This document shows, piece by piece, positions 46,615 to 49,334 of a DNA stretch of 64,000 nt. The notes under the pieces were generated by a model. The model saw only the letters and a program-made list of their open reading frames with translations, searched no databases and was not told where the DNA came from. Position 1 is the first letter of the stretch. Every line of letters starts with the position of its first letter. Origin of the DNA: Escherichia phage vB_EcoP_CU10EC; sequence record PQ435408.1. One strand, given 5' to 3'. Both the position numbers and the translations under genes were made by a program.

Positions 46615-48402
46615 TTAGTTACCTTTCAGTTTATTTAGACGATTACGGTAGAGGGACTTAAACCCAGGAATATCCTCTGGATTTTTCTTAAGGTGTTTGA
46701 CCAAACTACCTAAGTCCAGATTTTGAAGGATGTCACCAGCACCCCAGCTATACTGGAATAATCCTTTGTACTGATTAAGTATCTCAAAGTATTTATGATT
46801 ACGTGGGCTGGTCATTTGTATATAAGGTAATAAGTCCTCCTTTGACTTAATGTAACCCATTTCAATGAGCTTCTCTTCTTTACTCCGATGATTTCTTAAG
46901 AAATCATACGCCCATTCATACTCTGGTTTAAAAATCAGATTCTGTAATGGTTTGAATGTTAGACCAAGAATATCTAGGATTTCCCAATACTCTCTGTCAT
47001 CCAGACCTACGTATTCCAGAATACCAATACGGTGTTCAGTAACATACTTCTTGAATCCCTTACTGGTAATGACAGGCATCAGTTCTCTAAAACGAACATC
47101 ATCAATGTGAATAGCACCACGTCGTTTAGCTTTGTTAGCTTCGATTTGATTTCGACAGACAACAGTCTCTGCTTTCATCTCATCAGATAGCTCATACCAT
47201 TTCCACATGGTTCCAATCCGGGCAATTACTGGACTACCAGAATCAACTTGATTGGCTAGTACGTAGTACTTAGGTTGTTCCACTTCAACAAAACCATATT
47301 TCTCATGGCGACTTGGGTCAGCAAATTCCTTCTGAATATACGGTTTAGATACCAAATCACCACTTTTATCTCGTACAGGGGTAGTACCAAGAACTGCATT
47401 CAATGAAACCAATGCATTAGTTTTACCACCTGCTTTGGTTTTATTGGCAGCTATCGTCTTAGCACGTTTCTCAGCAGCTATCTTAGCCTGTTCTCTGCGG
47501 AAGTTAGTTGGCTTGTCCCACTCATTATATTGAGTAAGGTCAATTACCCGATAACCCATAGCAGTGAACTTAGCTACAGCTTTTTCTGCTTCACCCTTCT
47601 TAGGACCAACCACATGAACAAAAGCCGTACGCTCCAGGTCACCTCGGTTGTATTCAGGGAAGTATGAGAAGGAGTCTGCACAGTCAGATAAACGTCGTGT
47701 AACTACAACGTTCTTGGTGGTGAATATACCAATACTCTGGTGGGAGTTATGGTAAATTCTAAAGTAGTCAGTAAGTTTACCTTTTACCAGGTCTACAGAA
47801 TTACCTTGGTTCATTATGTAACCAGACCACTTATTACCAGTAGCTTTTAAAGCAGCAAGCTGAGGTAAGTGCAGATGACGATATACAAATTCCTGGAATG
47901 AGTAATATGTACTATCCTCACGAGTATCCTTAAGAGCACGCATAGCCTTACCGCATAGCTTCTTAAGACCTGCATACTCAGGACGAGCTAATAATGCTTT
48001 ATTGGATAAGTTACGCCAGTGCTTGATGTAATGCTTACGTTGCTTGGCCCATAAGCTGGAGGACATGTAGCGTTGAACAATTCTGTCTGTAACAGCACCC
48101 AGGAATGATGGATATTCCCAGAAACGGGTAGAGGATTCAGAGGCATATTCCTCAATCTGTTTAATAGCTTCAGGAATCTTAGCCTTAATCTCTTTCTCCA
48201 TACGGTCTACTAAATCTACGCATAGAGTAGTAATACCATCATCAGTTAACTTCTGGTTAGACAGTGTTTCTCGACTAGGAGCAATAGCTAAGGTGTCTGG
48301 TGCAGCCTGAACTACTAAATTAAAAGCACCAATAATATTCATGAAGTTGAGGATAAGCCCTACAGCCTCTTCACTAGCCGGGCTAGATACTATTGGGTAC
48401 AT
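46615..48402 (-). CDS. rIIA-like protein, C-terminal part (split from the N-terminal part by a 155-bp duplication)
   Basis: 595-aa ORF whose first 42 aa repeat the last 42 in-frame aa of the 48402..49334 ORF. Confidence 0.5.
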   Translation of the reverse strand: MYPIVSSPASEEAVGLILNFMNIIGAFNLVVQAAPDTLAIAPSRETLSNQKLTDDGITTLCVDLVDRMEKEIKAKIPEAIKQIEEYASESSTRFWEYPSFLGAVTDRIVQRYMSSSLWAKQRKHYIKHWRNLSNKALLARPEYAGLKKLCGKAMRALKDTREDSTYYSFQEFVYRHLHLPQLAALKATGNKWSGYIMNQGNSVDLVKGKLTDYFRIYHNSHQSIGIFTTKNVVVTRRLSDCADSFSYFPEYNRGDLERTAFVHVVGPKKGEAEKAVAKFTAMGYRVIDLTQYNEWDKPTNFRREQAKIAAEKRAKTIAANKTKAGGKTNALVSLNAVLGTTPVRDKSGDLVSKPYIQKEFADPSRHEKYGFVEVEQPKYYVLANQVDSGSPVIARIGTMWKWYELSDEMKAETVVCRNQIEANKAKRRGAIHIDDVRFRELMPVITSKGFKKYVTEHRIGILEYVGLDDREYWEILDILGLTFKPLQNLIFKPEYEWAYDFLRNHRSKEEKLIEMGYIKSKEDLLPYIQMTSPRNHKYFEILNQYKGLFQYSWGAGDILQNLDLGSLVKHLKKNPEDIPGFKSLYRNRLNKLKGN

Positions 48403-48584
48403 TACGTTACCGTAGCGAACGTATATGTTCTAGGAGCAATAGCTAAGGTGTCTGGTGCAGCCTGAACTACTAAATTAAAAGCACCAATAATATTCATGAA
48501 GTTGAGAATAAGCCCTACAGCCTCTTCACTAGCCGGGCTAGATACTATTGGGTACATTACGTTACCGTAGCGAACGTATATGTT
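48275..48584. repeat. Two copies of a 155-bp unit inside the rIIA-like gene (1 mismatch)
   Basis: 48275-48429 matches 48430-48584 except gaggataag versus gagaataag. Confidence 0.9.
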
Positions 48585-49334
48585 ACTACTACCCATATAG
48601 CCTTGATACCATCTATCAGACATATCATACGAACCAGGTTCAAATGACATACCCAGTGTATTCAGTAGAGTGTAATCACCCTGCTGAATACTGTTACCCT
48701 CTTCTGTTCTAACGAGTTTAGGAATACTAAGTTCAGCTTTAATCTCACCATTAAACACAATAGACTTAATGTAATGTACAAAGGTATTTACATCATGCTT
48801 GCCTAACTGGAATTTAACTTCCAGACCAGATTCTTCGGTAGGAATATTAGTAACAATAGGAACAATGCCTGGCTTACCATCATTCTCAATCGCAGCCTTA
48901 GCTACGTTATATACAGACATCTTTCCTTGGTTCCATGAAGTAACCTGGAAGCTATCTGTATAAGCGAATGGGGATTTACATCCCAGACCGAAGCCACCAG
49001 TAACACTACTGTTGGACTTCTTAGTAGATGCACCATAGACACCATAAATGGAACCAATGAGTTCATCTGGAATACCGCTACCGAAGTCTCGGAAGGTAAT
49101 AAAGTTGTCTGTATCAATAGTGATACGAATAGGAGTATCAGTCTTACCTGCTTCAATATGAGCATCCCAACTGTTACAGATAGTCTCACGGACTACTGCC
49201 AGAGTAGGATTGTTATACAAGGAAGTACTTAATACATGAAAGAATGCCGGGTCATCAGAGATGCCAAAGGCAATTGTTTCTTTGCCACCCAGTGTCGCTG
49301 AGGTAGCTACTTCATTGGTATCTGCAACTAACAT
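48402..49334 (-). CDS. rIIA-like protein, N-terminal GHKL-type ATPase domain
   Basis: 310 aa; GHKL motifs NSWDAH (N box), RDFGSGIP (G1), GGFGLGCKS (G2); ends by frameshift inside duplicate copy. Confidence 0.55.
   Translation of the reverse strand: MLVADTNEVATSATLGGKETIAFGISDDPAFFHVLSTSLYNNPTLAVVRETICNSWDAHIEAGKTDTPIRITIDTDNFITFRDFGSGIPDELIGSIYGVYGASTKKSNSSVTGGFGLGCKSPFAYTDSFQVTSWNQGKMSVYNVAKAAIENDGKPGIVPIVTNIPTEESGLEVKFQLGKHDVNTFVHYIKSIVFNGEIKAELSIPKLVRTEEGNSIQQGDYTLLNTLGMSFEPGSYDMSDRWYQGYMGSSNIYVRYGNVMYPIVSSPASEEAVGLILNFMNIIGAFNLVVQAAPDTLAIAPRTYTFATVT

Follow-up and report, generated by a model that had tools for sequence, protein, structure and literature searches.

The split rIIA gene of Escherichia phage vB_EcoP_CU10EC: a 155-nt tandem duplication very probably produced by k=77 de Bruijn assembly of a mixed phage population

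The rIIA-like gene of Escherichia phage vB_EcoP_CU10EC is written as two open reading frames (ORFs) in the sequence record PQ435408.1, of which a stretch of 64,000 nucleotides (nt), referred to here as the window, has been analysed. The gene (46615..49334, minus strand) is interrupted by a tandem duplication of 155 nt, and becomes a single ORF of 854 amino acids (aa) once one of the two copies is removed. Very probably, this duplication is an artefact of the assembly and finishing of a mixed phage population by means of a de Bruijn graph with k = 77, and not a feature of the phage genome. This reading is carried by direct observations, namely the geometry of the repeat, its recurrence at other places in the window, its absence from related phages and its exact reproduction by simulation.

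The tandem repeat at 48275-48429 and 48430-48584 (two copies of 155 nt, 99% identity) was detected by two independent repeat finders, and direct alignment of the copies gave one mismatch in 155 columns, a likeness that is far beyond chance. In the orientation of the gene, copy 1 corresponds to 48430..48584 and copy 2 to 48275..48429, both on the minus strand. The central base on the plus strand is A in copy 1 (position 48507, codon ATT) and G in copy 2 (position 48352, codon ATC); both codons specify isoleucine and the variant is therefore synonymous. The N-terminal part of rIIA, carrying a GHKL ATPase domain, is found in an ORF of 310 aa (48402..49334, minus strand). Because 155 is not a multiple of three, entry into the second copy puts this ORF out of frame and a stop codon follows nine codons further on, the final nine residues of the ORF (RTYTFATVT) being the result of out-of-frame read-through into that copy. 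The remainder of the gene is an ORF of 595 aa (46615..48402, minus strand) that starts at an internal methionine, Met269 of the collapsed protein (i.e., the product encoded when one copy is taken out). The two ORFs have 42 residues in common, MYPIVSSPASEEAVGLILNFMNIIGAFNLVVQAAPDTLAIAP, at the end of the 310-aa ORF and at the start of the 595-aa one, and the stop codon of the former (TAA) overlaps the ATG of the latter in the sequence TAATG. Deletion in silico of either 155-nt copy gave one unbroken ORF of 854 aa. An earlier note on this DNA, made from the letters and their ORFs, had described the duplication and its mismatch at these positions, the frameshift that ends the 310-aa ORF within the duplicate, the restart of the 595-aa ORF with the same 42 residues and a protein of about 850 aa on collapse; all of this has been borne out by the repeat finders and the alignment, by the translations of the ORFs and by the removal of one copy. 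A scan of 44300-49800 for promoters and terminators found fewer promoter-like sites than in shuffled sequence, none of them positioned to drive the 595-aa ORF.

The geometry of the repeat is the first indication of its origin. The mismatch between the rIIA copies is located at position 78 of 155, flanked by two exact blocks of 77 nt each (48275-48351 and 48353-48429), and the unit can thus be written as 77+1+77. When the whole window was analysed with Tandem Repeats Finder, further repeats of two 155-nt copies appeared at 4638-4947 and 29526-29835, and in each of the three isolated repeats the sole mismatch is again at position 78. If the placement of the mismatch were arbitrary, the chance of three central mismatches would be about (1/155)^3 = 2.7e-7, and the shared length of 155 nt is an additional coincidence that real duplications would require. 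The same program reported a 221-nt unit in two copies at 50045-50488, followed by more 155-nt units up to 50797, as well as units of 133 and 152 nt at 3490-3927. In the 221-nt unit (50046-50487), two mismatches are separated by 66 nt and have 77 nt outside each of them (77+1+65+1+77), and perfect 77-nt repeats in two copies are present at 3864-4018 and 29759-29912. When exact repeats of 30 nt or more were counted, 30 blocks were found in the window, 12 of which are exactly 77 nt and five 78 nt long; the same count in the complete genomes of three related phages gave none in SP5M, none in AN24P2 and two in UE-S5a. The repeats of UE-S5a (PP175015.1) are a 401-nt terminal repeat and an exact tandem of two 148-nt copies at 1372-1667, a length off the 2k+1 pattern discussed below.

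These figures bear on an alternative reading, a real and recent 155-bp (base pair) tandem duplication in the phage stock that would have produced either an rIIA-null mutant or a two-piece rIIA with re-initiation at TAATG. The sequence as given encodes exactly such a split, and the overlapping stop and start codons are in accordance with it. However, a genuine duplication should have an arbitrary length, a mutation at an arbitrary position, often microhomology at its borders and no recurrence of its length elsewhere, whereas here the length is common to three sites and the mismatch is always central. No microhomology was found at the borders of the duplication, the matched span being equal to the period, exactly 155 nt. 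Slippage through a TAGT motif close to both borders was also considered and rejected; it predicts an in-frame unit of 156 nt, which is not observed. Further evidence against a real duplication comes from the identical structures at other loci of the window, together with the perfect 77-nt overlaps. Among them, the repeat at 4638..4947 (plus strand; two 155-nt copies with a central A/G mismatch, Ile/Val, at 4715/4870) splits a GH108 endolysin. Collapsed, this gene encodes a protein of 211 aa with Glyco_hydro_108 and PG_binding_3 domains; as written, it is reduced to fragments of 84 and 198 aa. A phage with the endolysin broken in this manner would not be expected to form plaques or to have a viable genome, and the repeats are unlikely to be present in the packaged genome because the extra copy at 4638-4947 frameshifts an enzyme needed for lysis.

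The lengths of 155 and 77 nt are probably explained by the way short reads are assembled. In a de Bruijn graph whose vertices are k-mers (the convention of SPAdes), a one-base variant opens a bubble in which each arm measures k+1+k = 2k+1, and contigs that meet at a vertex of the graph overlap by exactly k. By default, SPAdes goes up to k = 77 with reads of about 150 nt. Both the unit length and the central mismatch of the rIIA repeat equal those of a k = 77 bubble. Strain variation gives rise to bubbles in phage assemblies, and assemblers may end contigs at them (PMC10104058). A k = 77 graph was simulated for the collapsed rIIA region, using two haplotypes with the central base as their sole difference; its two 155-nt arms coincide with 48275-48429 and 48430-48584 of the window in start, end and sequence. 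At the endolysin site, the simulation likewise reproduced both copies of the window exactly. Other k values gave arms of other lengths (111 nt for k = 55, 199 nt for k = 99 and 255 nt for k = 127), 155 nt being obtained at k = 77 only. The assembler, the k value and the joining step are what we infer from these coincidences. The sample would have contained two or more very similar Gamaleyavirus variants (G7C-like, N4-like phages of Escherichia coli) differing by a synonymous C/T change (ATC/ATT, Ile) inside rIIA, and this variant would have formed a k = 77 bubble with arms of 77+1+77 = 155 nt. One contig may then have ended with one arm of the bubble and the next one begun with the other, and end-to-end joining with no trimming of the overlap would have placed both arms, of 155 or 221 nt, in succession; a plain meeting of two contigs would have left their common 77-mer in duplicate. 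Accepting this sequence of events, the true gene would be one uninterrupted rIIA that encodes about 854 aa and precedes rIIB, in agreement with the relatives. The window shares with untrimmed SPAdes-type bubbles and overlaps of k = 77 the 2k+1 unit, the central variant, the 77-nt flanks, the perfect 77-nt duplications and the occurrence at multiple sites; it differs from them in a 1734-nt doubling (1-3468) and two multi-arm clusters (3469-4018 and 50046-50797), for which additional mis-joins or more than two haplotypes are needed.

The duplication might also be an artefact of another origin, for example the manual joining of overlapping amplicons or of Sanger pieces used for gap closure, or the insertion of duplicated ends by polishing or scaffolding software. 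The doubling at 1-3468 and the clusters 3469-4018 and 50046-50797 speak for this possibility, as they are not simple bubbles and do show additional mis-joining. On the other hand, arbitrary joins would not account for repeat lengths of 155, 155, 155, 221 and 77 nt, nor for mismatches placed at precisely 77 nt from the ends, and the copies are matched exactly by the simulation at k = 77 and not at other k values; such an origin is accordingly regarded as very improbable.

Comparison with related phages has shown that the extra copy is peculiar to this record. The DNA of the rIIA region is 88-91% identical to 56 phage records, nearly all of them from Gamaleyavirus (G7C-like, N4-like Schitoviridae of E. 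coli), 55 of which cover at least 80% of the 4-kb query, and the closest match in the phage collection is about 91% identical. When a 101-nt query spanning the junction of the two copies was used, its halves mapped about 155 nt apart in the 55 matched records and adjacent in none. In SP5M, AN24P2 and UE-S5a both copies of the window map onto the same 155 nt, and the same holds for the other repeat sites wherever they could be aligned. A 35-nt junction sequence had no exact match in the viral, metagenome and genome contig collections, and the duplication is in this way absent from the 56 relatives and from three public contig collections. The relatives annotate one rIIA gene followed by rIIB, the former with 853 aa in SP5M and 855 aa in UE-S5a. 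The collapsed protein is 92% identical to that of SP5M over 853 aa, and residues 209-366, which span the repeat, are identical in both. The two central-base alleles of the window are present in natural relatives, ATC in SP5M, UE-S5a and Bp4, and ATT in AN24P2. A synonymous variant with both alleles found in relatives fits a mixed population rather than a mutation that followed a duplication.

A broken rIIA has been annotated in another Gamaleyavirus record, that of Escherichia phage Bp4 (KJ135004.2), in which the gene is given as three "rIIA-like" coding sequences (839-3404). This fragmented annotation could be taken in support of a real duplication in the window; nevertheless, the break of Bp4 is unrelated to it. 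One of the breaks falls within the stretch homologous to the 155-nt unit, its cause is a deletion of 1 nt in a CCC run with no duplication, and it is probably either a (homopolymer) sequencing error or a point frameshift. The record OP312987.1 (Uz-1) is a near-duplicate of Bp4, with the same length and the same coordinates. A natural split of the homologues at this point, a possibility raised in the earlier note, has therefore been discarded: only Bp4 and Uz-1 look broken, the deletion in the CCC run accounts for Bp4, and the other relatives are intact.

The identity of the gene is well established once the extra copy is removed. With PHROG 2979 ("RIIA lysis inhibitor"), the collapsed protein aligns over residues 1-849 of 854 and profile positions 1-845 of 846 (E = 1.7e-293), a full-length match that is out of reach of either fragment alone. 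Residues 11-390 also match PHROG 612, a second RIIA family with a profile of 725 positions (E = 2.6e-69). The Pfam domain HATPase_c_3 was found at residues 47-157, within the 310-aa ORF, with 36.9 bits for a cut-off of 25, and the boxes typical of GHKL ATPases can be read directly in the sequence: the N box (E50-x3-N54-x2-D57-A), the G1 box (D82-F-G-S-G86) and the G2 box (G113-G-F-G-L-G118). The gene directly downstream begins 5 nt past the stop codon of rIIA and codes for an rIIB-like protein of 680 aa (44568..46610, minus strand), which matches PHROG 2886 (RIIB, E = 4.3e-212) and is annotated as rIIB in relatives. The three boxes in the 310-aa ORF and the succession of an rIIA homologue and an rIIB-like gene had been proposed from the sequence alone in the earlier note, and the domain and profile matches agree with both proposals. 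Exact-protein look-ups of the 310-aa ORF and of rIIB returned no match, and neither did a PDB sequence search with the collapsed rIIA, which has no sequence-detectable relative with a solved structure.

The gene is an ordinary member of the rIIA family of Gamaleyavirus, adjoining rIIB. In this genus, the rIIA proteins (QLF80670.1 of SP5M, 853 aa; WVP99877.1 of UE-S5a; and the gp33-like "rIIA-like protein" of G7C/N4) have the same N-terminal HATPase_c_3 domain, and their genes likewise come after the ThyX block and before rIIB; the sole difference is the extra 155 nt in the window. Genes of the rIIA-like and rIIB-like types have been included among the orthologue proteins compared between EC1-UPM and related N4-like phages (PMC3853248). 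The classical rII locus of phage T4, with an rIIA of 725 aa, resembles that of the window in the N-terminal GHKL-type ATPase region and in the pairing of rIIA with rIIB. Differences are also apparent: the C-terminal 460 residues of the collapsed rIIA have no match to PHROG 612, which, from its profile length only, we take to be the T4-type rIIA family, and the rIIB partner has 680 aa in the phage of the window. The rII phenotype (rapid lysis and exclusion by lambda Rex) is a genetic phenotype that was defined in T4. A natural or programmed split, in which the lineage would normally make rIIA as two polypeptides or through a frameshift, has a well-nigh negligible probability. The two ORFs and their overlapping stop and start codons are all that favors it, whereas the relatives encode one ORF of 853-855 aa, PHROG 2979 is matched end to end by the collapsed protein only, and the break depends wholly on the extra copy.

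Several points weigh against an assembly artefact and have to be considered. The artefact is read from the geometry of the repeats, not from direct observation. The sites 3469-4018 and 50046-50797 and the 1734-nt doubling cannot be reduced to the bubble of a single variant, and have been decoded only in part. In addition, the rII genes of T4 are dispensable on many hosts, because of which a real frameshift in rIIA is not implausible by itself, and the TAATG overlap could in principle support the coupled translation of the two pieces. In spite of this, the real duplication is already close to refuted by the recurring k = 77 geometry, and only a very slight chance is left to it, because the k = 77 arithmetic, the central mismatches, the recurrence and the broken endolysin must all be coincidence. 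The more specific proposal that the duplication is real in the stock and that rIIA is made in two pieces (a 310-aa GHKL ATPase and a 595-aa C-terminal fragment) by TAATG-coupled translation is given an even slighter chance. Were it true, nature would have provided a test, in an N4-like phage, of whether the ATPase portion and the C-terminal portion of rIIA are able to function as separate polypeptides. Regarding the claim of the earlier note that rIIA is split by a duplication, the identity of the gene and the mechanics of the frameshift hold, but the real duplication event implied by it finds no support, given the k = 77 geometry, the recurrence and the absence in relatives.

The remaining repeats of the window show how the same assembly artefact may take more complex forms. 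At 29526..29912, two 155-nt copies with a central C/A mismatch (29603/29758) in a C-rich run are followed by a perfect 77-nt copy, 29759-29835 being equal to 29836-29912; this last piece repeats the end of the unit itself, and relatives carry one copy. Another example is the region 50046..50797, where four alternative segments (221, 221, 155 and 155 nt) terminate with one and the same 77-mer. Three alleles (C/T/G) occur at one position of the region, and the fourth segment opens with a terminator hairpin in reverse complement, as is typical of graph tangles formed at inverted repeats. As a consequence of this arrangement, a small membrane-protein ORF adjacent to thyX seems to have three copies of its C-terminus, where relatives have one. 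The two-haplotype simulation at k = 77 did not reduce 29526-29912 and 50046-50797 to two arms because their flanks hold further duplicated pieces, and both sites were decoded by eye.

Three near-identical segments with two variable sites 3 nt apart are found at 3469..4018, together with a perfect overlap of 77/78 nt (3864-3941 equal to 3941-4018). Their haplotypes are TTTAAT, TTTAAG and TTGAAG and lie just 5' of a terminator hairpin, which suggests that the sequenced material comprised three haplotypes or more, or else that errors arose systematically beside the hairpin. Adjacent to this cluster, positions 1..3468 (plus strand) are a perfect tandem of two 1734-nt copies (100% identity), in frame and inside a tailspike-like ORF that extends past the left end of the window. 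The Klebsiella phage K57alpha1.2 has the 1734-nt segment once, with 93% identity. Probably, one contig or edge was entered twice to give the doubling, i.e., the same finishing problem, the alternative being a real in-frame repeat. Altogether, the complex sites (3469-4018, 50046-50797 and 1-3468) suggest the same class of problem with more than two haplotypes or further mis-joins.

The value of these results concerns data quality and not biology. If the record were taken at face value, rIIA, the endolysin and small genes near 29.6 and 50.4 kb would wrongly pass for pseudogenes or "split genes," and a doubled tailspike segment and spurious tandem repeats would also be obtained; any other finding in the window that depends on the 77-, 155- or 221-nt repeats or on the 1734-nt doubling should be judged likewise. 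The test for a central mismatch in a 2k+1 unit offers a quick and general screen for artefacts of this kind in deposited phage genomes. The only biological conclusion left is the probable presence of two or more closely related variants of Gamaleyavirus in the material that was sequenced.

Two further observations concern the records compared. The window resembles its relatives in a mosaic fashion: identity to AN24P2 amounts to 95.6% in the structural region (3469-25000) but only to about 89% in the part of rIIA that surrounds the repeat, where identity to SP5M is 97%. This pattern may reflect either the natural mosaicism of Gamaleyavirus or a chimeric assembly of co-occurring variants. Finally, the annotation table of the K57alpha1.2 record (OY979416.1, Klebsiella phage vB_Kpl_K57alpha1.2) seems to be out of register with its sequence. 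In this record, the DNA homologous to rIIA at 54414-54568 carries the label "virion structural protein," and the annotation "RIIA lysis inhibitor" is placed at 22350-24917, on DNA that corresponds to the structural/tailspike side of the window.

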